Below, piece by piece: positions 31,816 to 50,032 of a DNA stretch of 64,000 nucleotides (position 1 is the stretch's first letter; each line of letters opens with the position of its first letter). Origin of the DNA: Enterobacteria phage Aplg8; sequence record NC_054902.1, one strand, 5' to 3'. A model generated the notes under the pieces. That model saw only the letters and a list, made by a program, of their open reading frames with translations, was not told the DNA's origin and ran no database searches. Both the position numbers and the translations under genes were made by a program.

Positions 31816-32780
31816 TGTATTCTTTAGAGGAATTTAATAATCAAGCAATAAACGCAGATTTCCAACGTAATAATATGTTTAGCTGCGTTTTTGCAACAAC
31901 TCCATCAACTAAAAGCTCTTCGTTGATAAGTTCAATTAGCAACTTTTCTTATAATAACTTGGGCCTAAATTCAGATTGGTTAGGATTAACTCAAGGTGAT
32001 ATTAATCAGGGAATTACTACGCTAATTACAGCTGGCACACAAAAACTGATAAGAAAATCAGGGGTTAGTAAATATCTTATTGGTGCCATGAGTCAACGTA
32101 CAGTTCAAAGTTTATTAGGCTCATTTACAGTTGGTACATATTTAATTGACTTCTTTAACATGGCATATAACTCATCTGGATTGATGATATATTCTGTAAA
32201 AATGCCAGAGAATAGATTATCCTATGAAACTGACTGGAACTATAATTCTCCTAATATTCGTATAACTGGAAGAGAATTAGACCCTTTGGTTATTTCATTT
32301 AGAATGGATTCAGAAGCTTGTAACTATCGTGCAATGCAAGACTGGGTTAACGCTGTTCAAGACCCAGTAACTGGATTGCGTGCTTTACCGCAAGATGTCG
32401 AGGCAGATATTCAGGTCAATCTTCATTCTCGCAATGGATTACCACATACTGCGGTGATGTTCACTGGCTGTATTCCAATATCTGTGAGTGCTCCTGAGTT
32501 ATCATATGATGGAGATAACCAAATAACTACATTTGATGTTACTTTCGCTTATAGAGTCATGCAGGCTGGAGCAGTTGATAGACAAGCTGCCCTTGAATGG
32601 CTTGAATCTGCTACTATAAATGGTATTCAAAGCGTTCTCGGAAATAGTGGAGGTGTTACTGGACTATCTAATTCGCTTTCACGACTTAGTAGATTAGGGG
32701 GAACTGCAGGAAGCATTTCAAATATTAATACTATGACAGGAATTGTCAATTCGCAAAGTAAAATATTAGGAGCAATATAA
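31815..32780 (+). CDS. 54: baseplate tail-tube initiator gp54
   Basis: 321-aa ORF; synteny. Confidence 0.9.
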   Translation: MYSLEEFNNQAINADFQRNNMFSCVFATTPSTKSSSLISSISNFSYNNLGLNSDWLGLTQGDINQGITTLITAGTQKLIRKSGVSKYLIGAMSQRTVQSLLGSFTVGTYLIDFFNMAYNSSGLMIYSVKMPENRLSYETDWNYNSPNIRITGRELDPLVISFRMDSEACNYRAMQDWVNAVQDPVTGLRALPQDVEADIQVNLHSRNGLPHTAVMFTGCIPISVSAPELSYDGDNQITTFDVTFAYRVMQAGAVDRQAALEWLESATINGIQSVLGNSGGVTGLSNSLSRLSRLGGTAGSISNINTMTGIVNSQSKILGAI

Positions 32781-32784
32781 CAAT

Positions 32785-32803
32785 GGGGACCTTTCGGTCC
32801 CCC
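32785..32803. terminator. bidirectional hairpin GGGGACC-TTTC-GGTCCCC between gene 54 and the convergent 96-aa ORF
   Basis: 7-bp GC stem flanked by A/T runs. Confidence 0.65.
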
Positions 32804-32809
32804 ATATTT

Positions 32810-33100
32810 TTATTTACGGAATGAAATAAAAGCAGCAACTGAAGCAACAGAGGTTTCTTCAATATAAACCTCAATTTTTACCGGAGCTTCTGACTCAAAT
32901 TTACCTGTTACTACACCCTGGAAAATGCTTTCAGTCTGTTCTGGCTTTGAAAAATTTTCAGAAGGAAAAATTCCAAACTTTTTATCGGTTCCGAAAATTT
33001 TAATAAATTCATCGTAAACTGCTTCATTAAAAGCATTATCAGCGGGAATAACGCCTTCAACGACGAGTTCTTGACCTAAAAAGCGCAAAGAAGATTTCAT
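32810..33100 (-). CDS. hypothetical protein (T4 alt.-3 position), early-promoter driven
   Basis: 96-aa ORF; GAGGA Shine-Dalgarno; preceded by the 54-bp promoter-leader cassette. Confidence 0.65.
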   Translation of the reverse strand: MKSSLRFLGQELVVEGVIPADNAFNEAVYDEFIKIFGTDKKFGIFPSENFSKPEQTESIFQGVVTGKFESEAPVKIEVYIEETSVASVAAFISFRK

Positions 33101-33131
33101 TTTGTGTTCCTCATGTTATGTCAGTAAGACT

Positions 33132-33160
33132 ACTATAACACAACACGAGGGACTTGTAAA
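33132..33160 (-). promoter_or_regulatory. sigma70-type early promoter (GTTTACA-N17-TATAGT), copy A of duplicated cassette
   Basis: minus-strand reading TTTACA agtccctcgtgttgtgt TATAGT, followed by a leader with GAGGA. Confidence 0.6.
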
Positions 33161-35218
33161 CTACATTTTGAACTTTTTAGACATTCCGTTGATGTTAACC
33201 AAAGAAGCTAAGATTTGAGAAACTTCGTTTTCCTCTTCTTTTGATTCTTCTACAAGGAATTGATTAAATCCAGCCATTAGACGAACTTCACCAGTTTCCA
33301 TTAGATGGTCGCCATCATATACTGATTCCTCTAATTGTTCAGAAGGAGGAACGATTGTACCTTCGATTAGATACTTGTTATAAGCAGTTTCTTTCATAAA
33401 GTAAGTACTTACTTTATTAATCTTCAGTAAAATTCCACGTGGTAGAATAACTTCAGCTTCTGATGGAAATCCTGATAAATGACCCGGAACGATAACTTTG
33501 ATTCGCTCAGCTCCTTTAATTACCATACCCACGCTAGTTTCAGCATCTTCATTAGCATATGTAGAATGACTACCCATATGCATCAAATCTTCTGCATCAA
33601 CGGAACCTTCTCCTTCACCAGAAAATACTGCTCCGGAATCATCTAAGGCCATATAATTTTTACCATACTCACCAAAGATATTTGGTTTAAGTGATGTCGA
33701 TACGAAGTTCTTGAAATAGAACATTTTATTTTCAATGTTATGACGCAAAGTTTTAAAAGTAACTTCTTGTCCACGGTAAAGTGTAGTTCCTGGAGGAAGA
33801 ACTGAACCTTTAGCGAATGCAGAATCAAGCGTCTCAATATGTTTAATAGCTCGTTCCATATATTCTTCACGGGTAGAATCTGGTTTACCCAAAAGGAACG
33901 AGTTCATTTCAACATATGAATCTGCGCAATAATCTTCAATTACGTCAGATTCAGCCTGAGTTAATCCTTTTGGAGTTACTTCGGTGCTTGCATATTCATA
34001 CGCCTGAGCAGCGGATTCATCAATTAATTTATAAATGCCATTCATGACAAATTGAATAATAGCTGTCTTTTCATCTGGCGTAGCTTTAGAACCTTTAACT
34101 AAATCATTGACAATTTTCTTAATAACATCAAAGCTATTAGAAATATTAATGTCAGCAAGATCGCTTAAAATTTTATCAGTTTTATAATCAAAAAATTCTT
34201 TATTCTTTAAATATTCTTGAGAACTTTGATATGTTATATCGCTCTGCAACTTGATAGATGGATCACGTAAACGTGCATGGGCTAATGCAATATGATTTCG
34301 GAAGCTTTCTAGTTCATAATCGTTAGATTTAAAACGAGAAGCACTTCTCATACCACCGATAGCTCCTTTGCTGAAGTTTGAACCAATCTGAATAACGCCA
34401 GAGTTCATTGGTCCTTCTGCTTTATATACCGGAACTTTAGATTCAAACTCTTGATATTTCTTAGCAGCGAAGCTATCACCCTGAAGTGAAGCATCAACAG
34501 TAGAATATTGAGCTTGTGCTGCTAATCGACGACTAATTTTAGTTTTCTGAATAACAGCTTGATCCGTACGCTTATCATTTTCTAAAGCAATAGAAGCAGC
34601 AACTGCGACAGCTTTAGGAACAGCATTACCTGTTTTAACGTCTACATAAACATCACCAACCTTTGATTCAACTTTTGTGAATAACTCAGTTGAAATAGGA
34701 GGTACACCTGGAATGTCTTCTAAATTGGCATTTTTACGGTAAACCATAATATATGCATATTTCTTATCATAGTCCCAGATTTCCTTTAAAAGAACATATC
34801 GACCTGCTCCTTTAGTACGTACTAAACGGTCAGCAATAACTTGCATTTGACGAGCTGCGCCATTTGTTTTACTCTTTAGTACGCGGAATAAGCATGCATC
34901 AATTTTATACTGTTTCATTGTTTGAAGAGCAGTATCAAAAACAGCATTAATGACGCCAATTGGATTTCCACCTAAGTTTTTAAGTTTAACTAATGATAAT
35001 TTCTCGTTGACACCTATCATTACGATATGCATCATTTTGTCGCCTGGCTTAACGTTTTTATTCGTATCACCGCCAGAGGTGTATGTACAAAATCTAAATC
35101 CAGGAAGCACGCTTTCTTCACCGGCTTGAATAGCAAAAATTTGAGGTATTTTATGCTTAGGATTTAAGTTAACAACCGGCGCCGAAGCGCCGTCAAATAA
35201 TTCTGTAATAAGTTCCAT
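33161..35218 (-). CDS. Alt-like ADP-ribosyltransferase paralog (T4 alt.-2/alt.-1 position)
   Basis: 685-aa ORF; N-terminus MELITELFDGASAPVVNLNPKHKIPQIF parallels Alt; C-terminal R-S-E motifs (LYRGQ, FVSTSL, SEAEVILPRG). Confidence 0.8.
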   Translation of the reverse strand: MELITELFDGASAPVVNLNPKHKIPQIFAIQAGEESVLPGFRFCTYTSGGDTNKNVKPGDKMMHIVMIGVNEKLSLVKLKNLGGNPIGVINAVFDTALQTMKQYKIDACLFRVLKSKTNGAARQMQVIADRLVRTKGAGRYVLLKEIWDYDKKYAYIMVYRKNANLEDIPGVPPISTELFTKVESKVGDVYVDVKTGNAVPKAVAVAASIALENDKRTDQAVIQKTKISRRLAAQAQYSTVDASLQGDSFAAKKYQEFESKVPVYKAEGPMNSGVIQIGSNFSKGAIGGMRSASRFKSNDYELESFRNHIALAHARLRDPSIKLQSDITYQSSQEYLKNKEFFDYKTDKILSDLADINISNSFDVIKKIVNDLVKGSKATPDEKTAIIQFVMNGIYKLIDESAAQAYEYASTEVTPKGLTQAESDVIEDYCADSYVEMNSFLLGKPDSTREEYMERAIKHIETLDSAFAKGSVLPPGTTLYRGQEVTFKTLRHNIENKMFYFKNFVSTSLKPNIFGEYGKNYMALDDSGAVFSGEGEGSVDAEDLMHMGSHSTYANEDAETSVGMVIKGAERIKVIVPGHLSGFPSEAEVILPRGILLKINKVSTYFMKETAYNKYLIEGTIVPPSEQLEESVYDGDHLMETGEVRLMAGFNQFLVEESKEEENEVSQILASLVNINGMSKKFKM

Positions 35219-35221
35219 GAT

Positions 35222-37315
35222 TTATCCTTGAACGAACTTGTAAGGCATGTTTGTAATATCTATGCAAGACGCAATAATTCCAAGAGATGATTCTACTTTC
35301 TGTTTAACATTTGATGAAACAAATGATGCAAAGTCAACTCTGTCTTCTATTTCAATATCACCTGTCATTGCAACTACTTCGCCAGTTTCCATTAAACGGT
35401 CACCGTCATAAATTACCGATTCGGTGAGTTCTTCGGTGGTCATAACTTCAGCTTGAATGAGTTTTGTATTATTAGACGTGGTTCCGTCATTATTAGAAGC
35501 ATCAGTTATTTTATTAACTTTGACCATCAATCCGCGCGGTAGAATAACTTCGGCTTCTGTTGCTATTCCGAGACTTCCTGGATATACAACATTAACTTTA
35601 TGAGCTCCATCAATTGCCCATCCTATTTGAACTTTAACGTATTCAGGATTTTCTTTATACGCTCTTATTTCGTTTGGATTAATAGTTATTCCTTCTTCAT
35701 TTTTATCAACTGTCAATTCATTACGAGCTTCTGGTTCTAAAAGACCAATACCAGCATGTGTAATTCCAAAACGTCCAAAAATGATAGGAGTTAAAGAAGT
35801 AGATACAAAATTTCTGAAATAGAACACTTTATTTTTAACTAGTGCTTCGTATATAGGAGCAGTCATACTTTGAGCACGATAAACTGTGATGCCTTCCGGT
35901 ATGCGGTCACCATTTTCAAAAGCTGAATCTAAGTTATTTATAGCAGATTCAATTTCTTTTTCACTCATTACATCATATCGTTCTGGATTGTAACGACCTA
36001 AAAGAAGATTATTGATGTCAGTATATCCTGAACCGCAATATTCTCTAATGCCACGCTTTTGTGATGGAGTATATTTAGAACCATCGCGGGCAATAGTAAT
36101 ATCAATCATTGGACCAGCACCAATTCCAGAAAAACTGTAAATCATTCGTTTGAGGAATTTAGTTTTTGCTGCGTTCCAGGAATTTTTAGTTATTTCTTCC
36201 CAGACTTCATCTGGTTGTCCTTTACGATTTTTATTATGATTAGCAAGCCATTTATCTTTATAATCTTCAAAGAATTGATTTACAGCTGCTGCGTATTTCT
36301 CTAAACATTTTATTGAAGTAGTTGGTTCATTTTTAATTGCATTAAAAATTACTTCTTTAATTTTTTCTGAAACTTCACCGACTTGACTCATTGGAAAGAA
36401 TTTATAATCATAGTGAAGTTCATCTGCCGTTCCTTTAGCAATAATTTTTGCTGCCTTTGTTTTAGAAGCTAATGAATTAATTCCAATTTTCATTTCTTCT
36501 GCTTCGGGAATTAAAGGTGCAGTAGCTGGTTTATTAAAATTAGCTGCTGTAGATTCATACTTCTGGAATAATTCACTTTCAAATCTAGAAGATTCCAATG
36601 ACTGACTTTGTGCAATTGCTCTACGGGAAATTTTAACTTTAACGATTACGGCTTGGTCAGAACGTTTATCATTTTCTTGTGCAATAGATGCAGCAATTGC
36701 CTCATTTTTGGTTACTTGAGCTCCAGTATCTTTATTGATATAAACATCACCGACTTTCGATTCAACTTTAGTAAAGAGCTCGGTACTAATTTCCGGAACT
36801 CCTGGAATGTCTTCTAGTGATACATTTTTACGATGTATAAGAATATATGCATACTTTTTATCGTAATCCCAGAGTTCCTTAAGAAGGACGTATCTGCCAC
36901 CTGAACGACTGCGGATGAGTCTATCAGCAATAAGTTGAATTTGTCGAGCTTGACCGGCGGTTTTAGACTTAAGAATACGGAGCATACAGGCATCAATTTT
37001 ATACTGACGCATCGTTTGCATCGCAACAGTAAAAACTGAATTGATGTAATTAATTGGGCTTGGACCGAGACCTTTTAATTTAGCAATTGAACCTTTAGCA
37101 GTTAATGTAAAAGGAACAATATGCATCATTTTATCGCCCATCTTTAAATCGCGATTAGTATCACCTCCAGATGTATAGGTACACAAACGAAAGCCTGGTT
37201 GTTCAATTGCGTCATCAACATGAACTGAAAAAATTTGCGGTATTTTCTTCTTTGGATTTAAGTTTGTAATCGGAAGAGTAGTATCTTCGTCAAATAATTC
37301 TGTAATGAGTTCCAT
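35222..37315 (-). CDS. alt: Alt ADP-ribosyltransferase (packaged, modifies host RNA polymerase)
   Basis: 697 aa from the second Met (MELITELFDEDTTLP...); R-S-E motifs (VYRAQ, FVSTSL, TEAEVILPRG); late promoter upstream. Confidence 0.88.
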   Translation of the reverse strand: MELITELFDEDTTLPITNLNPKKKIPQIFSVHVDDAIEQPGFRLCTYTSGGDTNRDLKMGDKMMHIVPFTLTAKGSIAKLKGLGPSPINYINSVFTVAMQTMRQYKIDACMLRILKSKTAGQARQIQLIADRLIRSRSGGRYVLLKELWDYDKKYAYILIHRKNVSLEDIPGVPEISTELFTKVESKVGDVYINKDTGAQVTKNEAIAASIAQENDKRSDQAVIVKVKISRRAIAQSQSLESSRFESELFQKYESTAANFNKPATAPLIPEAEEMKIGINSLASKTKAAKIIAKGTADELHYDYKFFPMSQVGEVSEKIKEVIFNAIKNEPTTSIKCLEKYAAAVNQFFEDYKDKWLANHNKNRKGQPDEVWEEITKNSWNAAKTKFLKRMIYSFSGIGAGPMIDITIARDGSKYTPSQKRGIREYCGSGYTDINNLLLGRYNPERYDVMSEKEIESAINNLDSAFENGDRIPEGITVYRAQSMTAPIYEALVKNKVFYFRNFVSTSLTPIIFGRFGITHAGIGLLEPEARNELTVDKNEEGITINPNEIRAYKENPEYVKVQIGWAIDGAHKVNVVYPGSLGIATEAEVILPRGLMVKVNKITDASNNDGTTSNNTKLIQAEVMTTEELTESVIYDGDRLMETGEVVAMTGDIEIEDRVDFASFVSSNVKQKVESSLGIIASCIDITNMPYKFVQG

Positions 37316-37338
37316 CATATCCTCTCTAGTGTTTATTC

Positions 37339-37346
37339 TATTTATA
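37339..37346 (-). promoter_or_regulatory. T4-type late promoter TATAAATA (minus strand) upstream of alt
   Basis: plus-strand TATTTATA at 37339-37346, about 20 nt upstream of the alt start. Confidence 0.65.
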
Positions 37347-37351
37347 AAATT

Positions 37352-37369
37352 AAAGGCCCGAAGGCCTTT
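37352..37369 (-). terminator. hairpin AAAGGCC-CGAA-GGCCTTT downstream of the 62-aa ORF
   Basis: 7-bp stem; overlaps the stop of the 62-aa ORF. Confidence 0.55.
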
Positions 37370-37556
37370 AATAATCTATTGGTAAGAGAGTACGATATAT
37401 TTCAAACTTTGGACCTTTTTCATAGGCATCAAATGTTTCTGTGAATTTATTATAAGCATATGCATCTATAAATTCAATCATAATTTGTGATACAGAAGTA
37501 GAAACATCTCCACCTTCTTTTTGAGCCACGACAATTGTTTCTAAGTAAGCTTTCAT
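37368..37556 (-). CDS. small hypothetical protein between gene 30 and alt
   Basis: 62-aa ORF; start overlaps the gene 30 stop. Confidence 0.55.
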   Translation of the reverse strand: MKAYLETIVVAQKEGGDVSTSVSQIMIEFIDAYAYNKFTETFDAYEKGPKFEIYRTLLPIDY

Positions 37557-39016
37557 AAACCAGTTACCTCATGAAAATCGCCAAATACATCTTCGAACGT
37601 ATTAGCTTTAGTTTTATCTTCACGTAAACGAATCGCAATCGGAAGAAATAATTTAACGTAATCAGTGCGGCCATCAGATTTTAACCAACCGTTGCATTCG
37701 CACTCTAGAATTTTTCCAATATAATAATTTTGGTTTTCCATAATGCGAGTACGGTCAAGTTCATGCGATTTTACACCGGCTTTATCTTTTAAGCCTGAAC
37801 CAGCATTTACTTTAATTTTTCCACACTCTGATTCAAGAATAAATCCACCTGCTTTAGTAGGGTCTTTACGGTGAGGATAAATTCCTACAATTTTTAAATC
37901 AACATCAATTACTTCTTTAAATTTATAGAGATTTTTTGAACGAGCATTTTCCCATAACCCATCAACGTTTTTGAGAATAATACCTTCAAGACCTTGATCA
38001 ATATACTTTTTGTAAATTACCTTAGCTTCATCTAGGTTATTTACTACCTGGTTTTCAATTAAAATTACTTTATCATAGCCTGATGTCATTTGTTCTAGTT
38101 TAGAAAAACGTACATCATATTTTAAACGAAACGCCGGAAGACCGTATATTTCTACCAACGGGACATAATCCCAAACCTGAAACTTCATGCATTGAGCTTC
38201 TTTTTCAGAAATGGTTCCTTTTAAGGATTTATTGGCGATTCCATTAGAAGTAGTACGAGATTCCGCTACTTCGGCGAATTCTTTAGCTTTACTAATTTCA
38301 GGATAAGCATCAAAAAGAAAATCTAGGCCTTCTGGTTCCTTTTTAACTTGCTCATGGTATACCAATTCGCCATCAATTAACACGCCTTCTGGATGAATCT
38401 GGCGGGCTTCAGCAGTCATTTTGATTAACTCTTCCTTAAGAAGATCTAATCCTAGATATTCATTACCAGCTCGCGATAAAAGACGAACATCATCTAATTC
38501 ATCACCTCTAACTTCAGCAAAACATCGAGCTCCATCTGCTTTTAACTGCGCAAAGGCTGGAAATTTGATATTCTTACTAATGCCCTTTTCATCATAAGAA
38601 CTTGCCAGCATTTGAGGTTGTTCAGGAATTAAACCTGGCCAAACTTTGTTTGCAATAGATACTGAAGCACCGCATTCAAGGTCTCGCATCATCACTCGAC
38701 GCAAAACTTCAACATCATCCTTTTTACCATCGGTGATATATCCAGTCAATTCCTCAATTGCAGCATTTCCGGTCAATTTCCGAGTAGCTAACGTGAATTC
38801 AATGAAGTCAAGCATATCGGTAATAGTCAGCATTCCAAAACTCTGGGTAGCAATACCAGGTTTAGGCCATTTCTTGATATAATACTGTAACCCACGAGAA
38901 TAAGTCAGACGATATACCCGTTTAAGCAATTCATTATCTTTATTCTTTTCAAGAATTGCTTGCTTCTGCTTAGTTGATCCAATAGATGCTATTTCATTCA
39001 GAATTTTAAGAATCAT
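37553..39016 (-). CDS. 30: ATP-dependent DNA ligase gp30
   Basis: 487-aa ORF; active-site KADGAR motif; sequence matches T4 DNA ligase as I recall it. Confidence 0.97.
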   Translation of the reverse strand: MILKILNEIASIGSTKQKQAILEKNKDNELLKRVYRLTYSRGLQYYIKKWPKPGIATQSFGMLTITDMLDFIEFTLATRKLTGNAAIEELTGYITDGKKDDVEVLRRVMMRDLECGASVSIANKVWPGLIPEQPQMLASSYDEKGISKNIKFPAFAQLKADGARCFAEVRGDELDDVRLLSRAGNEYLGLDLLKEELIKMTAEARQIHPEGVLIDGELVYHEQVKKEPEGLDFLFDAYPEISKAKEFAEVAESRTTSNGIANKSLKGTISEKEAQCMKFQVWDYVPLVEIYGLPAFRLKYDVRFSKLEQMTSGYDKVILIENQVVNNLDEAKVIYKKYIDQGLEGIILKNVDGLWENARSKNLYKFKEVIDVDLKIVGIYPHRKDPTKAGGFILESECGKIKVNAGSGLKDKAGVKSHELDRTRIMENQNYYIGKILECECNGWLKSDGRTDYVKLFLPIAIRLREDKTKANTFEDVFGDFHEVTGL

Positions 39017-39282
39017 TGCTCATCCTTCAAAGTTTGGTTTACAGCTCTATTATAAATCAATTCATCATTAAGCTCAGGCAAAGACTTATGATATGTAGTT
39101 CTAACTTTATTTCCTTGCATCCAGTGCTTGACGTAAATGAAACCTTGCTCTACACATTTTTTAAAAATTCGTTCGTCTTTTTGAGCTCGGAATTCTGGAT
39201 TGCATCTAAAAAATTGATTTACGTGACCGTAATCACGTGTAGTATTACCTTCATTTTCATAAATAGTGTGAACGACAAACAT
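39013..39282 (-). CDS. hypothetical protein (T4 30.1 position)
   Basis: 89-aa ORF; ATGA overlap with gene 30. Confidence 0.65.
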   Translation of the reverse strand: MFVVHTIYENEGNTTRDYGHVNQFFRCNPEFRAQKDERIFKKCVEQGFIYVKHWMQGNKVRTTYHKSLPELNDELIYNRAVNQTLKDEQ

Positions 39283-40118
39283 TAGAATGCTCCTTGGAAA
39301 ATATTATCACCACCAGTAGGTCTATTATACAAATACTCTATGCCACCAGGTTTAATATAGTTCCATGTCTGAAAAGGATGCGTCTGATATGGATGATATA
39401 GATTATAAGGATTAAATCCAGGAGTTCTCCAGGTAGTGTTCCAAGGAAAAGAATCGTTTTTAATCATCTTCTCAATTACATCTTTTATAACTTTTTCACT
39501 ATCAAAACTTTCTTTATTTTCCTTCGATGGAAAAAGCTTATTCTCTACATCATTCCATGTATAAACTCGCTGTGCAGTTTTTGGAATACTGTCACGCTCC
39601 CCTCGAGCCATCCAATAAACAGGAACATTTAATATTTCACTCGCGTGATCGCAATGGTGAGCGAGATCGTCAATATAACAAATTACGTTATATTTCTCTT
39701 TTGCCTTTTTGAACAACTCTTCTTTTGAAGAATCATGACCACACATCAATACTTCTGAGAAGGCACCAGGAAAAAGAGCATTCAAATTAAATTGACGATT
39801 CAGCAGAGCGTCAATAGAATCACCCAATGCTGTAACAGCTACAAAATTATAATCTTCTTTTAATTTGTTAATTACACACAGAGCATCTTTATATGGAGAC
39901 AAGTAACGAATAAAATCCGAACGATTGTATTTTTCAATTAGCTTAACGCCAAGTTCTTCATCACAGTTAAAGAGTTTACCTGGAGAAATAAATTTTTCGT
40001 CCTGAATCATTTTTAAAATATGTTCTAATGGAAGATTATATTTTTGGGCAAAATAAGGAAGACCTGATTGCCAGCTTAAACATACACCATCAATATCAGT
40101 TAAAATAGTAGGCTTCAT
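39282..40118 (-). CDS. HAD-superfamily hydrolase-like protein (T4 30.2 position)
   Basis: 278-aa ORF; N-terminal ILTDIDGV matches HAD motif I (DxDG). Confidence 0.7.
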   Translation of the reverse strand: MKPTILTDIDGVCLSWQSGLPYFAQKYNLPLEHILKMIQDEKFISPGKLFNCDEELGVKLIEKYNRSDFIRYLSPYKDALCVINKLKEDYNFVAVTALGDSIDALLNRQFNLNALFPGAFSEVLMCGHDSSKEELFKKAKEKYNVICYIDDLAHHCDHASEILNVPVYWMARGERDSIPKTAQRVYTWNDVENKLFPSKENKESFDSEKVIKDVIEKMIKNDSFPWNTTWRTPGFNPYNLYHPYQTHPFQTWNYIKPGGIEYLYNRPTGGDNIFQGAF

Positions 40119-40579
40119 AGAGAGTCTCTTAATAGGTTTAACACATCAATAAATTCAGCTTCGGTTAATATTGTATCATCTTTTGTTAGACCACTAGCCA
40201 TGCTGTGCTTCAAAACTTTTCCTTTCGAGGCTTGTAATGCATCACGAAAGCCCCTGTTTTGGAACGCTGCTTCAAAATATGCATTTGTGTATAATTCTTT
40301 CCACGCTGGAGAGTATCTTGAAAACGGAACTCCGAGCCAGAAGAGGGTCCCACGGTCCTGAGCTCTAGCATAAGCTCGTCCAGCTTGTTGGGCAGCAAGC
40401 CCGGATAACCCAAATATACGACGTTGCTGTTCAACATTTTTCACCTTACACCCTTGGAGGAATCCTTCGAGACCTCCAAATTGGATACCATCCATAACAA
40501 AAGGCCATTGGGCGAAATTACTTAATGCGCATGATGGCCATTTAAAATTGCTTCTTATCTCTAGCTCAGACATTTTCAA
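40115..40579 (-). CDS. NADAR-domain (YbiA-like) protein (T4 30.3 position)
   Basis: 154-aa ORF; pattern WPSCALSNF...GIQFGGLEGFLQ...W...Y typical of NADAR/DUF1768 proteins. Confidence 0.65.
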   Translation of the reverse strand: MKMSELEIRSNFKWPSCALSNFAQWPFVMDGIQFGGLEGFLQGCKVKNVEQQRRIFGLSGLAAQQAGRAYARAQDRGTLFWLGVPFSRYSPAWKELYTNAYFEAAFQNRGFRDALQASKGKVLKHSMASGLTKDDTILTEAEFIDVLNLLRDSL

Positions 40580-40772
40580 TACTTATAATTTCAACATCAG
40601 CCCAATGACCATAGCAAGGAAGACGAAATTCAACTGGCCAGTTAGGGTCCTTTTCTAATATAATAGACTCAACTTTCGGTTCTTCATGTTCATCAGTATA
40701 TGGATTTTTATCTGTTACTTTATATGTGACCTTAATGTACTGAATTCCAAAAATCTTATTAATTATATTCAT
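40566..40772 (-). CDS. hypothetical protein
   Basis: 68-aa ORF in a tightly overlapping minus-strand array. Confidence 0.55.
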   Translation of the reverse strand: MNIINKIFGIQYIKVTYKVTDKNPYTDEHEEPKVESIILEKDPNWPVEFRLPCYGHWADVEIISIENV

Positions 40773-40966
40773 ACTAATTCCTTTAATCCGTAAATAGGAG
40801 ATAATTCATCGCCCATACGAAGGTCTTCATTTCCATCTACCCAGGAAACAATATAAGCCTCTTTTATTTGAATACCACTCCATTTAAATGGAGGTAGAAC
40901 CTTAGAAATTAATCCAGGTATACCAACTCCCTTTAATTCAACAGTTTGACCTAAAAAGAATTTCAT
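40769..40966 (-). CDS. hypothetical protein
   Basis: 65-aa ORF; ATGA overlap with the downstream gene. Confidence 0.55.
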   Translation of the reverse strand: MKFFLGQTVELKGVGIPGLISKVLPPFKWSGIQIKEAYIVSWVDGNEDLRMGDELSPIYGLKELV

Positions 40967-41253
40967 TAGAACCTCATCTGAAAACCGTGCGATTTAACAT
41001 TACCGCCGCCAATATCAGAAATGTTAATTTCACGCGCAATTGAAGGATCAATGTCAATTTCACGATTGAGTTTAGTGATAGCTAAAGTATCGCGCCCATT
41101 TACAGTACGGAACTCTAAAGGACATACTACATTAACGTAGTTTTTAATCGATTCACTGGTAGGTTGCAAATGAGCAGGAAGGTCTTTAGGCGCTTTAGAG
41201 AAAACCACTTCACAGAAATTTTTGCGGGTATCAAAATAAGTAGTCATAAACAT
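40966..41253 (-). CDS. hypothetical protein
   Basis: 95-aa ORF. Confidence 0.6.
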   Translation of the reverse strand: MFMTTYFDTRKNFCEVVFSKAPKDLPAHLQPTSESIKNYVNVVCPLEFRTVNGRDTLAITKLNREIDIDPSIAREINISDIGGGNVKSHGFQMRF

Positions 41254-41270
41254 AGTATTTTCCTCAGTAA

Positions 41271-41284
41271 GGGGCCGAAGCCCC
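41271..41284 (-). terminator. hairpin (RNA GGGGC-UUCG-GCCCC) downstream of the 121-aa ORF
   Basis: plus strand GGGGCCGAAGCCCC, identical to the element at 20236. Confidence 0.55.
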
Positions 41285-41294
41285 TCATTTTATT

Positions 41295-41660
41295 TTAAAT
41301 ATCAAATTCGTTAAGAACTACATCAAAGATTGCTTCAAGATGCTCAGGTTTAGCTCTGTTACTCAGAATATGACGAATCCAAGTTTTAACCAGAAGCTTG
41401 CGATTAACGCCATTCCAGCAAGGATGAGTCCCTAAATCGCGTTGACGAAAATCATCATCCAAAGCGATTTTGAAGTTGGAACCTTCCATTGTGATTGAAA
41501 CCGTGATGCCATTTTCAAATCGCATATAAACGTAGTTAGGAGTCATATACTGTTCAATTTCGCATACTGATCCATTTTGATGTTTCCAAAGGCAAATAGT
41601 ATCAATAGAACCTGCAATACCATTAGAAACATATTTACGTTCAAAGTTGATGTAGTTCAT
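41295..41660 (-). CDS. hypothetical protein
   Basis: 121-aa ORF; early promoter upstream. Confidence 0.65.
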   Translation of the reverse strand: MNYINFERKYVSNGIAGSIDTICLWKHQNGSVCEIEQYMTPNYVYMRFENGITVSITMEGSNFKIALDDDFRQRDLGTHPCWNGVNRKLLVKTWIRHILSNRAKPEHLEAIFDVVLNEFDI

Positions 41661-41687
41661 TTTTATTCTCCGAGATGTTTAATTGCG

Positions 41688-41726
41688 GTACAGGTATATA
41701 ATATCATATCCTGTACCAAAGTAAAC
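41688..41726 (-). promoter_or_regulatory. early promoter (GTTTAC-N17-TGaTATTAT) with -10 inside an 8-bp inverted repeat
   Basis: plus GGTACAGG tatataatatcatat CCTGTACC; minus-strand -35 GTTTAC at 41721-41726, extended -10 at 41698-41706. Confidence 0.55.
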
Positions 41727-41728
41727 AA

Positions 41729-42061
41729 TTATTTTACTACTTTCCAGTGCTGCATGTCAAGTTTACCAACTTTTTTCATCTTCTCAATTAAGCGTTCGGC
41801 ACGTTGGCGAGCTGTAACATAATACCATTCACCTAATTCATTTTGTTCAATTTTTCCAACGATTACTGTATTCAATTCATAAATCCAACCAGTAAAGAAA
41901 TTATGAACTTGAATTGTAAAGGTGAAATCTGTTCCCATACCTTCTGTTGTTTCTACTTCAATAATATTACCTTCAACTGCCATTAAGAACCACATAGTTT
42001 CATCATATTTACCATTGAAGCATTTAGTTTTAACTGCAGCGTTCAGATTAATCGTTTTCAT
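41729..42061 (-). CDS. hypothetical protein
   Basis: 110-aa ORF. Confidence 0.65.
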   Translation of the reverse strand: MKTINLNAAVKTKCFNGKYDETMWFLMAVEGNIIEVETTEGMGTDFTFTIQVHNFFTGWIYELNTVIVGKIEQNELGEWYYVTARQRAERLIEKMKKVGKLDMQHWKVVK

Positions 42062-42085
42062 TTTATTCTCCTTTGTTTGTGTAAG

Positions 42086-42118
42086 ATAATACTATCACAA
42101 AGGAACCATACTGTAAAC
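42086..42118 (-). promoter_or_regulatory. early promoter (GTTTAC-N18-TGaTAGTAT)
   Basis: minus-strand reading GTTTAC agtatggttcctttgtga TAGTAT upstream of the 110-aa ORF. Confidence 0.5.
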
Positions 42119-42145
42119 AACTTTGTGCAATCTTTGGAAAATAAA

Positions 42146-42166
42146 AAAGGACTCCCGAAGGAGTCC
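42146..42166 (-). terminator. intrinsic terminator GGACTCC-TTCG-GGAGTCC + U-tract (minus strand)
   Basis: plus strand AAAAAAGGACTCCCGAAGGAGTCC just past the stop of the basic 58-aa ORF. Confidence 0.7.
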
Positions 42167-42171
42167 TCAAC

Positions 42172-42348
42172 TTATGCTTTCTGCTTACCAAAACGAGAAG
42201 CATCATCTCGAAGAACCGCACGTGCTCGGCGCATGATCTTCTCAACAGTTTGATTGATACGAGAGTTCGACCCACGCTTGTAACCAGCGCGTTTAGAATC
42301 ACCAACTTTCTTTTCAACTGCTTTCTTTGCTTTAGCTTGTTTTGCCAT
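42172..42348 (-). CDS. small highly basic protein (Lys/Arg-rich)
   Basis: 58 aa from the internal ATG (MAKQAKAKKAVEKK...); the ORF-track start at 42390 is less likely. Confidence 0.55.
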   Translation of the reverse strand: MAKQAKAKKAVEKKVGDSKRAGYKRGSNSRINQTVEKIMRRARAVLRDDASRFGKQKA

Positions 42349-42592
42349 TATAAATTCTCTTTTAAATGAAAATGCAGGACTTATTGGCATTGCCTGCGAA
42401 AGCCCTCAAGGGGTACTTAGGTTTTGAATATTTAACGACCAGGATAACCATAAACCCGTCATCATTCACATTCAAGAGGTACACCGTAAAACTGCCGGGG
42501 TCTTAAAACTATAATGATTCGCAAATCATTAATCAGACAGTTCGACGGCTCCTCGATTTTAGCTCACACTAAGGCAGTGAATCTCCAATAAA

Positions 42593-42841
42593 TTACTTCA
42601 GTGTTACCACAAAGTGACGAACTGCTTTTCGTGCAGCAGAAGCCAGAGGCTTAGCATATTTAAGTTCATCTTTTTCCTGAAGCTCAGCGGCTAATGCAGT
42701 TTGAGCAGGATTCAGATGTTTGAAATAACGCAGGATTTCAAGAGCTTCGGCTTCAACATCAATAGATGCGCCATAGTTTTCGTGACCATTATTCCATGCG
42801 TTTCGTTGCAGTTCAAGAGCGTGTTGTAATTGTTTAATCAT
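42593..42841 (-). CDS. rIII: rIII lysis-inhibition accessory protein
   Basis: 82-aa ORF; position between gene 31 and the 30.x cluster. Confidence 0.8.
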   Translation of the reverse strand: MIKQLQHALELQRNAWNNGHENYGASIDVEAEALEILRYFKHLNPAQTALAAELQEKDELKYAKPLASAARKAVRHFVVTLK

Positions 42842-42988
42842 TTAAAAATTCTCGTTAGAGATTAAAACTCGGTAGTCACGTTCTTCTGAATTTCATCTTC
42901 TTTCGACAGATCTCTCAGTTGTAGACTACCACATAGAATTGTTCGGTTAACTTATTATTCCGACACCCAATTCATATTATTATTTATA

Positions 42989-43324
42989 TCACTTATAAAG
43001 ACACGGAATAGCTTTATAATGACAGGTAACGAATTTTTGTTTAATTTCTTTTGGCTGCTTAAGACCCAGAGCTACAAAAGGATGCGGAACATTTCGAATT
43101 TGACCAACTGGAAGAGAAGTCAAATCACCAACTTCGCAGAAACCTTCAGGAACATCAGGACCAACAGAGTGAACTACACACAGTTCAGGAACTTCACCTT
43201 GGACACGTTTACCAATAATAAGTCCTGATTCTGTAACTTCTTCATCACCGGCTTGCGCAGGTTCAGAAACTAAAATAACATATTCACCGACAGCACGAAT
43301 TGGTAGCTGTTGTACTTCAGACAT
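42989..43324 (-). CDS. 31: co-chaperonin gp31 (GroES analogue)
   Basis: 111-aa ORF; synteny. Confidence 0.9.
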
Positions 43325-43380
43325 CGTTTTTCCTTTTTGTTAACAGATGAATTAATAATAACAAATAATTCTTAAAGCAT

Positions 43381-43689
43381 TTATTTACCAATAAATTGAA
43401 GCAAATGCTCAACTTTCATGCCATTAACGGAAATCAATTTGTCAATAGAAAAACCTCGCCATGCACCGAGTTCAACATCAAATATCGGAATCATATCAGT
43501 AGATTCTTTCCGAGTAGATTCAGTCAATTTACCGGTTTGCATAGTTGGCATAAAGTCACCATCACGGGTGCCTTTCATAGTACGAATAGTACCATCAGAC
43601 TTTTCAAAAACCACGTTTGAAATACCCATGGACAATTTAGTTTTCAAAATTTCACGAATTGCTACTTTCTGTTCAGTTGTCAGTTTCAT
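43381..43689 (-). CDS. hypothetical protein
   Basis: 102-aa ORF. Confidence 0.6.
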   Translation of the reverse strand: MKLTTEQKVAIREILKTKLSMGISNVVFEKSDGTIRTMKGTRDGDFMPTMQTGKLTESTRKESTDMIPIFDVELGAWRGFSIDKLISVNGMKVEHLLQFIGK

Positions 43690-43926
43690 TTATTTACCTA
43701 TTACAGTTTTAATATGAGTTGTTCCACGTTCTTTAAGAGTGGAAAGCAACTTTTGGCATTTTTCTAAATCAGATTTCCAACTATACGGCCTATCAATACA
43801 AACCCATTCTGACTTATAATACTGTTTCCATTTAGAGAAAAAATATTTCTTATACTCTACAGCAAATGAGATGTTCTCATTAGAATAAGAACTAATTGCT
43901 GTGAGCTTTACCAAACGAAATTTCAT
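43690..43926 (-). CDS. hypothetical protein
   Basis: 78-aa ORF. Confidence 0.55.
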   Translation of the reverse strand: MKFRLVKLTAISSYSNENISFAVEYKKYFFSKWKQYYKSEWVCIDRPYSWKSDLEKCQKLLSTLKERGTTHIKTVIGK

Positions 43927-44507
43927 TATTCACCACAGAATTCGTTGATATTTTCCCAGTTTAACTTATTCAAGTTTTTCTTAGGAACATTAAACACTTC
44001 AATACCTGCATTTCGCAGAATATCATCCCAACCAGGTTTATTTTTATCGTATGTTTCACAATAAACTAGCTTTTTAATACCAGATTGAGCTATCGCTTTT
44101 GCGCAATCCGGACAAGGAGAAAGTGTTACATACATAGTAGCACCTTCAATAGAAGAACCATTTCGTGCAGCAAACAAAATTGCATTTAGTTCAGCATGAA
44201 TTTCATTTTTAGATGACCATTCCGAGTGAGCACTACGATGTTCTTTCGCCAAGACAAAACGATCAGTTGAACCAAACGATACACATTCAGGCTTATGACC
44301 TTGAATGATAGTATGTTTAGGTTTATTCAACAACCAACCTTGCTCAGCAGCATAATCACAGCAGTTCACACCACCAGCAGGTGAACCATTATATCCGGTA
44401 GAAATAATACGTCCATTCTTTTCAATTACTGCTCCTACTTTCCAGGAGCAACATTTTGATTCTTGTGATACTAAATATGCAATTTGAAGTACTGTACTCG
44501 CTTTCAT
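43926..44507 (-). CDS. cd: dCMP deaminase
   Basis: 193-aa ORF; cytidine/dCMP deaminase zinc motifs (HAE...PCPDC). Confidence 0.93.
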   Translation of the reverse strand: MKASTVLQIAYLVSQESKCCSWKVGAVIEKNGRIISTGYNGSPAGGVNCCDYAAEQGWLLNKPKHTIIQGHKPECVSFGSTDRFVLAKEHRSAHSEWSSKNEIHAELNAILFAARNGSSIEGATMYVTLSPCPDCAKAIAQSGIKKLVYCETYDKNKPGWDDILRNAGIEVFNVPKKNLNKLNWENINEFCGE

Positions 44508-44842
44508 TTCATAATCACCAGATAAGCAGATTTAGCAGTTTCAACACGATAAATTTCGTGACGAAGTTTAGTTATACTTTTAATAACAGAACTAATTATA
44601 TTCTGCCCATCTTTAAAGCGGTTTTTCTTATCAATAAAAACTGCGCCAGTCATCTTTTTGTGAAGCTCAACTGGATACTTCGTCACAATAATAGCATCAT
44701 ACACAGAAGGATGAATACTATTCACCAGAGTATCATTCATTAAAGTTATTCTAATGAACTTTGCTGTTTCAGAATCAAGCGCTCTATGATCGCCAGTATC
44801 ATTTTCAAGACAATTATCAATTATATCAGTTAAATTCATCAT
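44504..44842 (-). CDS. hypothetical protein
   Basis: 112-aa ORF; ATGA overlap with cd. Confidence 0.6.
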   Translation of the reverse strand: MMNLTDIIDNCLENDTGDHRALDSETAKFIRITLMNDTLVNSIHPSVYDAIIVTKYPVELHKKMTGAVFIDKKNRFKDGQNIISSVIKSITKLRHEIYRVETAKSAYLVIMK

Positions 44843-45075
44843 AGTACGCCATACACCCTTTGTGCTTCAACTAATCCATCAAAATCCAATTTGAGATGTG
44901 TTATTTGGTCACCATCACCTGGATTCACAATTACTAATACTGAACGAGGAGTTTCGGTAATAACACGAACCGATGTTTCAGGAAATCGTTCAGAAACCTT
45001 ATTTACCAATTCCTGTGCAAATAGCTTAACTTTTTCTTGGAATTCTTTAACAGTAATTGGTTTTTCACTTAGCAT
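44839..45075 (-). CDS. hypothetical protein
   Basis: 78-aa ORF. Confidence 0.6.
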   Translation of the reverse strand: MLSEKPITVKEFQEKVKLFAQELVNKVSERFPETSVRVITETPRSVLVIVNPGDGDQITHLKLDFDGLVEAQRVYGVL

Positions 45076-45096
45076 TTTGTTTTCCTCATTTGTTTT

Positions 45097-45135
45097 GGTA
45101 GAGCTATAATATCACAACTCTACCGTAAAGTAAAC
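45097..45135 (-). promoter_or_regulatory. early promoter (GTTTAC-N18-TGaTATTAT) with -10 inside a 7-bp inverted repeat
   Basis: plus GGTAGAG ctataatatcacaa CTCTACC; minus-strand -35 at 45130-45135. Confidence 0.55.
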
Positions 45136-45137
45136 TG

Positions 45138-45413
45138 TTAAATTGCCTTGAATTCTGATGTCTGTGATTCAAAACGAATATCGCCTTTGATGACCAGCTC
45201 AGCATCAAGACCAAATACGACAATGATATGCGCAGAACCTGGATACAGCGTAATGGCAATAGAATCCACCTGGTCTGGAAGCAAAGTGTTCAATACATGA
45301 GTCACTTGAGCATGAATTCGAAGCTCGGCTGCGTTATCAAGCTTTTCAAACATATTATTAGCGATAATTTGGCTAAACACTACTTCTACGATTTTAGAAT
45401 AAGTCGGAAACAT
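45138..45413 (-). CDS. hypothetical protein
   Basis: 91-aa ORF. Confidence 0.6.
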   Translation of the reverse strand: MFPTYSKIVEVVFSQIIANNMFEKLDNAAELRIHAQVTHVLNTLLPDQVDSIAITLYPGSAHIIVVFGLDAELVIKGDIRFESQTSEFKAI

Positions 45414-45415
45414 AT

Positions 45416-45608
45416 TTACCTCACATAATTTTCTTCAAGCCAATCAATAACATCCAACGCATTATCAAAAGTTGAACCATCTACTTTATCTTCTGTTTCA
45501 TAATCAAGAACATCTAAGCCTACTCTTCCATCAACAATAGGCCATAAACAAAATAGATATTTCTTTTCTTTTTCAATTTTATCACAAAGTCGATAAATCT
45601 TTTCTATG

Positions 45609-45616
<8 letters not shown>
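45416..45616 (-). CDS. hypothetical protein
   Basis: 66-aa ORF. Confidence 0.55.
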
Positions 45617-47009
<1,393 letters not shown>

Positions 47010-47013
<4 letters not shown>

Positions 47014-47240
47014 TTATTTTTCTCAACTAATGATTGAATATAATCATGCAGGTCTTTAGATGCTTTACCCCACTTATTTTGATATTCATTTTTGAGATTA
47101 GCACGTGATTGAGCTAATAAAACATCATTAGTTGGAGGTAAAGATTCTAACCGCTGAATCTGGCGTCCATAAATCATTGCAGCCATCTCGGATTCATAAA
47201 TCAATCCTTTGAGATGTTCAAATTGATGCCATGAAATCAT
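47010..47240 (-). CDS. hypothetical protein
   Basis: 76-aa ORF. Confidence 0.55.
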
Positions 47241-47536
47241 TTACATTTATCCTCTTTTAACTCTTGACGATAATAACATATCATAGTTTTCTGATCATGT
47301 ACATATCGTTTTACATCATTAAGCCAAATACGAAATTCCTGGGAATCTTCAAATGGCATACCGACCCAAGCTTTACCATCAATAACTTTAACTTGCCAAG
47401 ATAGTTTAGCTTCATCATATGACTTTATTTGTACAGGCCAATTAGGATGAACTGTTTCTTTCTTTACTTCTAGAGGCTTTGTAGAACAACCAACTAGAAG
47501 ACCAATAGATAATATTACTGCTGATAGTTTAATCAT
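47237..47536 (-). CDS. outer-membrane lipoprotein, putative o-spanin
   Basis: 99-aa ORF; signal peptide with lipobox LLVGC|S; adjacent to the i-spanin-like ORF. Confidence 0.7.
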   Translation of the reverse strand: MIKLSAVILSIGLLVGCSTKPLEVKKETVHPNWPVQIKSYDEAKLSWQVKVIDGKAWVGMPFEDSQEFRIWLNDVKRYVHDQKTMICYYRQELKEDKCK

Positions 47537-47886
47537 TTAGAAAGGTCCTGGATGTCTTCTGCGAACTTGTTGAAGGAGTTGTTGATTTGTTTTTCAACCA
47601 ATCCTGGCTTATGAGCCACCACATCCGCCTTCTTTGCGTCTTTGCGCAGTTTTTCATTTTCACGCTCAATAGCAGCAATTGCCTCACGATTTTTATTATT
47701 CATCGCATCAATATAATTATACTGAATTCGCAAATTATTTAATGCTAAGGCGTTTTCATTGGCCGTTTTTGTAATTTCTACAACAGACGTTTCTAATCTT
47801 TCAATTTTATTTTTTAAAATTAAAGAAGTTCCGCCTAATGCAATTACAATTAATAGCAAACCTGCTGTCGTATTACTTAATTGCAT
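47533..47886 (-). CDS. putative i-spanin (N-terminal transmembrane helix + coiled coil)
   Basis: 117-aa ORF; hydrophobic segment AGLLLIVIALGGTSLIL followed by helical charged region. Confidence 0.7.
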   Translation of the reverse strand: MQLSNTTAGLLLIVIALGGTSLILKNKIERLETSVVEITKTANENALALNNLRIQYNYIDAMNNKNREAIAAIERENEKLRKDAKKADVVAHKPGLVEKQINNSFNKFAEDIQDLSK

Positions 47887-48383
47887 AAAGTTTTAATAAC
47901 CTCTATAATATCGTCTTGAGAAAGACCGTTAATTAAAATATGATGTTCAGCTGGAGATTTAGAAATTTTAAAGCATGCCTCAACATCTTCTGCCATATCC
48001 GATGCACTACGATTTGGATTACTAATACCAAGGCGGTGTTTTCCCGTCAAAGGATTAACGATGATATAGCATTTGCAGCTATTGATATGAACATTGGGTT
48101 GAGTCTGATTAATGAACACTTCACAATCATACTTAGCGAGTTGATTTTCTAAAAAGACTTTCATCTCTTCAACCGCATCAGGAAGCATATCACGGGCTTG
48201 CTCAAGACGACGATTTCGATATTCTTTAATGGTCGTTTTCCGCTTGACTTGCTTAGCTAAATCTTTCTTAAGATCGGTGATATATCCAACTCGACGATTT
48301 CCTTTGAATACAGAAATCCCATCTGTAGTATCACCGTATGCTTCAACGACCATTTCAGTAGTAATAAGTTGTAAATCCATCAT
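47877..48383 (-). CDS. alc: Alc, inhibitor of host transcription on cytosine DNA
   Basis: 168-aa ORF in the T4 position between rnlA and the spanin/pseT cluster; early promoter cassette upstream. Confidence 0.75.
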   Translation of the reverse strand: MMDLQLITTEMVVEAYGDTTDGISVFKGNRRVGYITDLKKDLAKQVKRKTTIKEYRNRRLEQARDMLPDAVEEMKVFLENQLAKYDCEVFINQTQPNVHINSCKCYIIVNPLTGKHRLGISNPNRSASDMAEDVEACFKISKSPAEHHILINGLSQDDIIEVIKTLCN

Positions 48384-48411
48384 AAAGTCCTCATGTTATG
48401 TCAGTAAGACT

Positions 48412-48440
48412 ACTGTAACACAACACGAGGGACTTGTAAA
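48412..48440 (-). promoter_or_regulatory. sigma70-type early promoter (GTTTACA-N17-TACAGT), copy B of duplicated cassette
   Basis: 53/54 identical to the cassette at 33108-33161; directly upstream of the alc start. Confidence 0.6.
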
Positions 48441-48444
48441 CAGC

Positions 48445-50032
<1,588 letters not shown>

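Follow-up and report, generated by a model that had tools for sequence, protein, structure and literature searches.

We describe a 54-bp regulatory cassette that occurs twice in a 64,000-nucleotide stretch of the genome of Enterobacteria phage Aplg8 (sequence record NC_054902.1; the whole stretch is called the window below), once upstream of alt.-3 and once upstream of alc. Each copy carries an early promoter of the T4 type, and the spacer of this promoter is complementary to the leader that follows it. We consider it moderately probable that the cassette is an early promoter placed inside a hairpin of the PeSL type, that the Shine-Dalgarno (SD) sequence is occluded only in RNA that arrives from upstream, and that the two copies came about by gene conversion. 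Under this reading, read-through RNA from rnlA or from the Alt paralogue would contain both arms of an 18-bp hairpin, which would hide the ribosome-binding site of alc or alt.-3, respectively. The RNA from the cassette's own promoter would begin within the hairpin, without the 5' arm, and would leave the ribosome-binding site free. The translation of alc and alt.-3 would thereby be tied to their own early promoters, an effect that is predicted here from RNA folding.

A cassette present twice in the window

The minus-strand 54-mer GTTTACAAGTCCCTCGTGTTGTGTTATAGTAGTCTTACTGACATAACATGAGGA lies at 33108-33161 (copy A), and its copy at 48388-48441 (copy B) is identical at 53 of 54 positions, as the first-pass annotation of this DNA had proposed. 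The single mismatch is a T-to-C change in the -10 box, with T in copy A and C in copy B. The repeat search of the window returns the pair as a direct repeat of 54 nt, 98% identical and spaced by 15,280 bp; alignment confirms the identity, and none of 100 dinucleotide shuffles contains any match to the pair. In this unbiased search it is the sole dispersed non-coding repeat of the window, the remaining repeat families being the coding duplication of alt and its paralogue and the coding repeats near 63.3-64.0 kb. Both copies stand upstream of minus-strand start codons, those of alt.-3 (96 aa) and alc (168 aa). The positions of the two copies are:

33108-33161, minus strand: copy A, flanked by alt.-3 and by the stop of the second gene for an Alt-like ADP-ribosyltransferase
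48388-48441, minus strand: copy B, between rnlA (gene 63) and alc

In an alignment that takes in 150-200 nt of flank to either side of the two copies, identity runs from the G of GTTTACA to GAGGA and ends sharply at both edges, beyond which the flanks are unrelated. The pair is thus not part of a longer repeat entering coding sequence, a case for which the annotation had allowed. The 5' edge of the identity falls on the final G of the upstream stop (TAG) in copy A, and in copy B it lies 3 nt past the upstream TAA stop. From the -35 box to the ATG the two copies are 89% identical. This sets the pair apart from ordinary T4 early promoters (Pe): among eight early-promoter-like sites of the window, the other 27 pairs (15 of which compare sites other than copies A and B) have a mean identity of 59% and a maximum of 71%, as against 98% over 54 bp for this pair.

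The window belongs to Tequatrovirus and is 98-100% identical to T4, RB51 and relatives. T4 has both copies, likewise identical at 53 of 54 positions, with the mismatch at another position. A blastn search of 50,697 phage records locates the 54-mer 995 times, with at least 94% identity throughout, and these places are spread over 498 records, which makes about two per genome; those of the 498 records that were examined are Tequatrovirus, and at that blastn sensitivity the rest of the collection has no match. With two copies in T4 and in these records, the pair appears to be fixed in T4-type (Tequatrovirus) genomes and not to be peculiar to this one. The GenBank phage collection was used here in place of IMG/VR, where scans with the Alc and Alt.-3 proteins gave five to six close relatives each.

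The early promoter

Both copies contain TTTACA, a 17-bp spacer and a TGn-extended -10 box, which reads TATAGT in copy A and TACAGT in copy B. A consensus scan gives 10 of 12 matches for copy A and 9 of 12 for copy B, with TG ahead of the -10 box in both, and the promoter of sigma-70 or T4-early type that had been proposed here, together with its leader, is borne out. The elements of the two promoters are:

33155-33160, minus strand: -35 box TTTACA of copy A; the preceding G at 33161 also closes the upstream TAG stop
33132-33137, minus strand: -10 box TATAGT of copy A, with TGT before it; at the top of the hairpin
48412-48440, minus strand: promoter of copy B, with TTTACA at 48435-48440, a 17-bp spacer, and TGT plus TACAGT at 48412-48417

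The -35 box abuts the upstream stop codon. The 20-40 nt upstream of it, where an UP element would lie, are coding and yet A/T-rich, with AAAAAGTTCAAAATGTAG in copy A and AAAAATTATAAAAAATTTATCC farther upstream in copy B. From the spacing to the -10 box, transcription in copy A would start at about A 33125, which is about A37 of the element, and the host sigma-70 RNA polymerase is predicted to start some 25 nt upstream of the start codon.

In their -35 box, TGn and -10 box both copies fit the "uber" design (UP/-35/TGn/-10) under which T4 early promoters have been described, and share with it GTTTACA, the 17-bp spacer, TGn, a TAnnnT -10 box, a cTTAC start region and the setting in front of early genes (Hinton 2010, PMC2988021). 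They also match the consensus TTTACW-N17-TAYWAT of the PeSL promoters of T4 and PST, as given in the accessible part of Comeau et al. (2014, PMC4122927). By the class assignments from time-resolved omics of T4, alc and alt.-3 are both early in RNA and early in protein, rnlA is early in RNA and late in protein, and the RNA of alt.-1 and alt.-2 is middle. The earlier suggestion that the two genes are co-regulated finds support as far as this shared early class. The promoter lists of Liebig and Rüger from 1989 and of Wilkens and Rüger from 1994 probably include both promoters.

The predicted hairpin over the SD sequence

What the first-pass annotation missed is a complementarity between the spacer of the promoter, CCTCGTGTTGTGTT, and the leader, GACATAACATGAGG. 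In the numbering of the 54-mer, positions 12-25 (RNA CCUCGUGUUGUGUU, the spacer) pair with positions 40-53 (RNA GACAUAACAUGAGG, the leader including the SD sequence GAGG), and 28-31 pair with 36-39 in an apical stem with a GUCU loop, which gives 18 bp in all with the -10 box on top. The parts of the hairpin in the two copies are:

33137-33150, minus strand: 5' arm of copy A, CCTCGTGTTGTGTT, in the spacer with the anti-SD CCTC; upstream of the predicted start
33123-33134, minus strand: apical stem-loop of copy A, AGTA-GTCT-TACT, from folding
33109-33122, minus strand: 3' arm of copy A, GACATAACATGAGG, in the transcribed leader; SD GAGG at 33109-33112
48417-48430, minus strand: 5' arm of copy B, in the spacer, with the anti-SD
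48389-48402, minus strand: 3' arm of copy B, in the leader; SD GAGG at 48389-48392

The minimum free energy of the segment from the -35 box to the ATG is -23.0 kcal/mol in copy A (z -4.4) and -25.7 kcal/mol in copy B (z -6.1). RNA that begins just past the -10 box folds with -2.5 and -5.0 kcal/mol in copies A and B (z -0.2 and -1.0), like its shuffles. By geometry, and with the start placed where the -10 spacing predicts, transcription would begin in the apical stem-loop, on its 3' side and just upstream of the 3' arm of 14 nt. To open the region from the SD to the AUG is predicted to cost 14.5 (A) and 16.2 (B) kcal/mol in the read-through RNA and 2.4 and 3.1 kcal/mol in the RNA from the own promoter, and the latter holds for three adjacent starts. 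We use these opening energies because the probability that the SD is paired is misleading for short transcripts, where it reaches 0.5-0.9 at only -2 to -4 kcal/mol.

Since the leader is the 3' arm and the spacer the 5' arm, promoter and leader are constrained together, and this explains why conservation reaches past the promoter into the leader. The annotation had taken that reach as meaningful, which it is, and as the mark of a shared leader element; the leader is indeed conserved, but it is not an element of its own, being one half of a hairpin whose other half is the promoter spacer.

Two other assignments for the hairpin were rejected on the sequence. A Rho-independent terminator is not indicated, as there is no U-tract and the tails are AACACAAAAUG and CUUUAUGAUG, and a RegB processing site is not present, the T4 and window version having GAGGA and no GGAG. 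The terminator scan finds nothing at either copy, though it detects the bidirectional terminator at 32785-32802, and Rfam has no family at either copy, the four hits in 32000-49500 being all sub-threshold and elsewhere.

Four more early promoters of the window, all on the minus strand, have hairpins that enclose the -10 box: 57492-57549 (z -3.8), 45075-45135 (z -5.1), 42059-42118 (z -2.1) and 41662-41726 (z -5.1). Among these four, only the promoter at 42118 pairs its spacer, UUCCUUUG, with its SD, CAAAGGAG. At the promoter-like sites 61842 and 58541 the hairpin is absent or weak. Hairpins spanning the -10 box thus seem, from their sequences, to be the rule for the early promoters of this region. 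Just upstream of the 42118 promoter, at 42133-42216 (minus strand), there is a sub-threshold Rfam match to the Rhizobiales small RNA Atu_C8, which with 31.4 bits against a gathering score of 50 and an E value of 0.006 is probably due to chance.

Conservation of the pairing

We compare the rnlA-alc intergenic region of 12 other genera with that of Tequatrovirus, 13 genera in all. In 11 of the 12, the order of stop codon, GTTTACA, spacer, TGn -10, leader and SD is kept, and the same 11 have a significant hairpin that encloses the -10 box (z -2.3 to -7.1). Gaprivervirus VR26 has, in place of this layout, a terminator-like hairpin together with a partial copy of alc, and in Aes012 and S13 the promoter layout is not evident. 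The VR26 region (L017, 388-704) holds the G/C-rich hairpin AAGGGGTGTACAAGCCCCTT and a 234-nt Alc-like open reading frame (ORF) between rnlA and alc. In nine of the 13 genera, that of the window included, the 5' arm starts right after the -35 box with an anti-SD sequence, and the arms differ between genera in a compensatory way:

T4: 5' arm CCUCGUGUU, 3' arm AACAUGAGG
Melville: 5' arm UCUCCGUUU, 3' arm AAACGGAGA
Pet-CM3-4: 5' arm UCUCCAUUUGGUU, 3' arm AACCAAAUGGAGA
LilPanda: 5' arm UCCUCAUCAG, 3' arm CUGAUGAGGA
X20: 5' arm UCCUCAUUUUGUU, 3' arm AACGAAAUGAGGA
IME523: 5' arm CCCAUUUUGUU, 3' arm AACAAAAUGGG; the SD itself is altered (UCCCC with GGGGA)

The next question is whether spacers and leaders fit each other better within a genome than between genomes. 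The energy of the spacer-leader duplex has a mean of -15.5 kcal/mol when both come from the same genome and of -8.9 kcal/mol when they come from mismatched genomes, and 0 of 20000 permutations reached the matched total. Alignment of 10 cross-genus alc elements by MAFFT, followed by RNAalifold, yields no consensus hairpin; the arms shift their register relative to the fixed -35 and -10 boxes, so sequence alignment cannot show the covariation, and the permutation test and the per-sequence z-scores are used for this purpose. What is kept across genera is the complementarity alone and not the sequence of the arms, and these comparisons argue that the spacer-leader pairing is under selection. With only complementarity kept across genera, no RegB GGAG and no Rfam family, neither the processing site nor the translational operator (taken as protein-bound) that had been offered as the reason for the conserved leader finds support.

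Within Tequatrovirus, 23 copies fall into 13 haplotypes with several changes that preserve the structure. G16A and G40A each replace G-U by A-U, C15U turns a C-G pair into U-G (in one genome G50A completes it to U-A), and T27C falls in the bulge.

Probable transplantation and exchange between the loci

In Winklervirus, Dhakavirus, Gelderlandvirus, Mosigvirus and Karamvirus the promoter upstream of alt.-3 is a different one, and these five promoters are similar to each other. They have a mini-hairpin, CCACaaggaNGTGG, within the spacer, no anti-SD, and a leader that ends in ...ACATGAGGAAC. Because the alt.-3 promoter differs in other genera, copy A is probably a transplanted cassette of the alc type which, to judge from these sequences, replaced the ancestral alt.-3 promoter by gene conversion. 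The rnlA-alc cassette would be the ancestral one, and in the Tequatrovirus lineage the conversion would have taken place between the shared ends GTTTACA and ACATGAGGA; both the direction and the mechanism are our inference. Copy A adjoins a variable second copy of alt, which is intact here and decayed to alt.-1 and alt.-2 in T4, and copy B lies in a rnlA-alc synteny that is conserved in 12 genera.

The two loci also appear to have stayed in contact. In the Tequatrovirus sample, which is small and biased to divergent genomes, there are zero fixed differences between the loci despite 8-9 polymorphic sites per locus. Copies A and B of one genome differ at 2.2 positions, as compared with 1.9-3.0 between orthologues of different genomes, and four polymorphisms are common to both loci, against an expectation of 0.4-0.7 (P about 0.001-0.005). 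In PP01 both loci have the G29A+G32A haplotype. This pattern of sequence sharing suggests that exchange between the two loci is continuing. The "recent duplication" of the first-pass annotation is therefore to be recast: the cassette is duplicated, but the pair appears to be fixed in the 498 records and looks like the transplant of an alc cassette followed by continued exchange.

Outside Tequatrovirus, the identity between the two loci of one genome from the -35 box to the ATG is 0.87 in VR5 and 0.79 in moha, as compared with 0.89 in the window and an orthologue mean of 0.70. Dhakavirus VR5 has an identical 29-nt leader, CCTTACACAAACATGAGGAGAACATTATG, at both loci (L021, 647-706; L026, 4158-4235) with spacers that are specific to each locus, which, from the sequence, has the look of a partial conversion between these loci that happened independently. 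Exchange between the loci thus seems to have occurred in Dhakavirus VR5 and Mosigvirus moha as well. The gene order at both loci is the same in 11 of 11 genomes examined.

Alternative explanations

Several observations weigh against SD occlusion by the hairpin and against copying by conversion. The Mosigvirus alc element keeps the promoter layout and has no hairpin, and the hairpins of fHe-Yen9-01, PEi26 and AC4 span the -10 box but end before the SD; in view of these, occlusion of the SD may be secondary to another function of the hairpin. Since alt.-3 lacks an anti-SD arm in the five genera named above, occlusion is not required for alt.-3. Five natural variants break pairs (G16U, U19A, C12A, G40U and G29A), and G29A improves the -10 box to TATAAT. 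The diversity of the element, 0.036-0.055, is not below the 0.027-0.044 of the flanking coding DNA in a comparison that is weak, as its 11 genomes were picked as the most divergent, and in which the value of 0.319 for the upstream alt3 is an alignment artefact of the T4 deletion. The shared polymorphisms could reflect recurrent mutation at a few tolerant sites and not gene conversion. The literature search gave no transcription start, termination or translation data for either site, and the T4 RefSeq record annotates no promoter at either of them, early promoters being named there only in passing (Pe133295).

The main rival explanation, which is also the original interpretation of PeSL, is that the cassette serves as an insulator: the hairpin would terminate or attenuate transcription from upstream, or protect the 3' end of the upstream mRNA, the promoter would restart transcription, and the covering of the SD would be incidental. 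According to the accessible part of Arbiol et al. (2010, PMC2839356), one PeSL stem-loop lowered the expression of a downstream lacZ to an extent similar to that of the rrnB T1 terminator, and stem-loops overlapping the -10 box are a common PeSL subclass. The three genera with a strong -10 hairpin that does not reach the SD fit this explanation, as does the finding that just one of the four other such hairpins of the window reaches its SD. It is harder to reconcile with the stems themselves, since 0 of 13 alc elements have a U-tract after the stem and their tails are A-rich, or with a terminator scan that is negative at both copies and positive at 32785-32802. Moreover, 9 of 13 genera have a 5' arm that is specifically anti-SD, and arm and SD have changed together in IME523. 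We regard the insulator as unlikely to be the explanation, and note that the two roles can coexist.

It is improbable, in our judgement, that the cassette is a recombination linker whose similarity is kept by homologous exchange and the modular shuffling of genes, and not by regulation. The indications that the two loci have exchanged sequence in three genera, the polymorphisms common to both loci, the plasticity of the region beside copy A and the mini-circles documented for PeSL (Arbiol et al. 2010, PMC2839356, in the part accessible) would all agree with a linker. A crossover between the direct copies, however, would delete or duplicate 15.3 kb with DNA ligase, gene 31 and others, so that only non-crossover conversion is plausible; gene order is kept at both loci in all 11 genomes, and the covariation of spacer and leader across genera is left unexplained. 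The view that we are dealing with a plain strong promoter that was duplicated, its identity an accident of a young genus and its hairpin without function, is already disfavoured and has, to our mind, little probability. Tequatrovirus genomes do differ by a few percent only, and the element is no more conserved than its flanking genes in the 11-genome sample, but a functionless hairpin is at odds with the z values of -4.4 and -6.1 and with hairpins kept in different sequences in 11 of 12 other genera, where spacer and leader covary, and an accident of youth is at odds with the lack of fixed A/B differences despite the 8-9 polymorphic sites of each locus. Least probable of all, and very much so, is a DNA operator for a dimeric protein (e.g., one responsible for the shut-off of early promoters) or a cruciform with an influence on how the promoter opens. 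The -10 box is at the centre of the palindrome, and the shut-off mechanism of T4 early promoters is not known (Hinton 2010, PMC2988021). The arms, however, differ between window promoters and between genera while their complementarity is kept, a sign that what is selected is a single-stranded fold and not a sequence recognised by a protein, and the tolerance of G-U (G-T) pairs and their replacement by A-U fit RNA pairing. The linker, the neutral duplication and the DNA operator are less well supported than either the promoter inside an SD-covering hairpin or the insulator.

A wider form of the preferred reading is that many T4-type phages couple an early promoter to an anti-SD hairpin as an "off" switch in cis, by which Alc (in Tequatrovirus also Alt.-3) would be translated only from the RNA of its own early promoter, and that gene conversion has moved the cassette repeatedly, in at least three genera, between two loci 15 kb apart. 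We offer it tentatively, as somewhat less probable than not. If it is true, RNA that reads through would be untranslatable once the early promoters are silent, which would amount to a cis-encoded, post-transcriptional "off" switch for immediate-early proteins and a mirror image of the switch of the lysozyme gene e. Conversion of the cassette in three or more genera would count among the rare documented instances in which the regulatory cassettes of a lytic phage evolve in concert.

Relation to known elements

By its sequence, the element has the structure that defines a PeSL cassette in the accessible parts of Arbiol et al. (2010, PMC2839356) and Comeau et al. (2014, PMC4122927), and the PeSL comparisons that follow refer to those parts. 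It has the stop codon, the sigma-70-like early promoter, the stem-loop, the SD and the ATG; the overlap of its stem-loop with the -10 box places it in a subclass listed for PeSL; and it occurs about twice per genome, with variants that suggest recombination between the copies. It differs in that the role given to the PeSL stem-loop there is that of a terminator or attenuator, those parts containing no discussion of SD pairing, alc or translation. The stem here is long (18 bp) and ends on the SD; it is not based on G/C tracts, and no U-tail follows it. The copies lie 15 kb from each other, apparently beside essential genes and not beside ORFans in a hyperplastic region, and the A/T-rich segment before the -35 box falls within the coding sequence upstream.

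Hairpins that sequester a ribosome-binding site and contain an internal promoter are known from the T4 genes e, soc, 49 and I-TevI, and these four late-gene cases are the only ones given by Uzan and Miller (2010, PMC3014915). As in these, the SD is held in a helix in the long read-through RNA (here by prediction), and the own promoter lies in the DNA of the 5' strand or loop, such that its RNA is without the inhibitory arm (here by geometry). The difference is in the timing: their internal promoter is late (gp55, TATAAATA), and the hairpin blocks the early translation of a late gene. The internal promoter here is an early sigma-70 promoter, so the same logic would restrict translation to the time in which the early promoter is active. 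As its promoter is not a late one, the element would work like the e, soc, 49 and I-TevI family without being a strict member of it. What we have, then, is a known type of regulatory cassette with what folding predicts to be a modestly new mechanistic twist.

If the hairpin works as predicted, it would be the early-promoter version of the T4 switch in which a promoter lies inside a ribosome-binding-site hairpin. It would help to explain the temporal confinement of immediate-early proteins such as Alc, the terminator of host transcription, and would give the PeSL stem-loops a second role besides termination. The transplantation and homogenisation of the cassette would mean that phage regulatory modules move without moving genes. 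Since the element is present in T4, any function would apply to the best-studied lytic phage and could be tested by standard T4 genetics. The general picture of T4 biology is not fundamentally changed by these findings.

Neighbouring genes and other features of the window

The genes on either side of the two copies are:

32810-33100, minus strand: alt.-3 ORF, 96 aa; downstream of copy A
33161-35218, minus strand: second Alt-like ADP-ribosyltransferase, 685 aa; upstream of copy A and the source of any read-through RNA there
47877-48383, minus strand: alc ORF, 168 aa from the first ATG; downstream of copy B
48445-49569, minus strand: rnlA or gene 63 (RNA ligase 1); upstream of copy B and the source of any read-through RNA there, with its 5' end set by the 1125-nt T4 annotation

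The product of alt.-3 is uncharacterised and is dispensable in T4, and mutants with a C-terminal extension of it escape the CmdTAC defence (Vassallo et al. 2024). The control of alt.-3 expression may therefore matter for the interaction of the phage with host defences. Between alt.-3 and the convergent gene 54, the sequence GGGGACC-GAAA-GGTCCCC at 32785-32802 forms the bidirectional terminator-like hairpin mentioned above.

The Alt-like gene upstream of copy A is one of two full-length ADP-ribosyltransferase genes in tandem on the minus strand, at 33161-35218 (685 aa) and 35222-37318 (698 aa), which share 72-75% DNA identity over several blocks at a spacing of 2094-2097 bp. In Melville, alt is broken by a frameshift. 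At 63290-63963 there is a coding repeat of about 71 nt in four copies, 61-73% identical, which by synteny (rnh and then the proximal subunit of the long tail fibre in annotated relatives) probably lies within gene 34.

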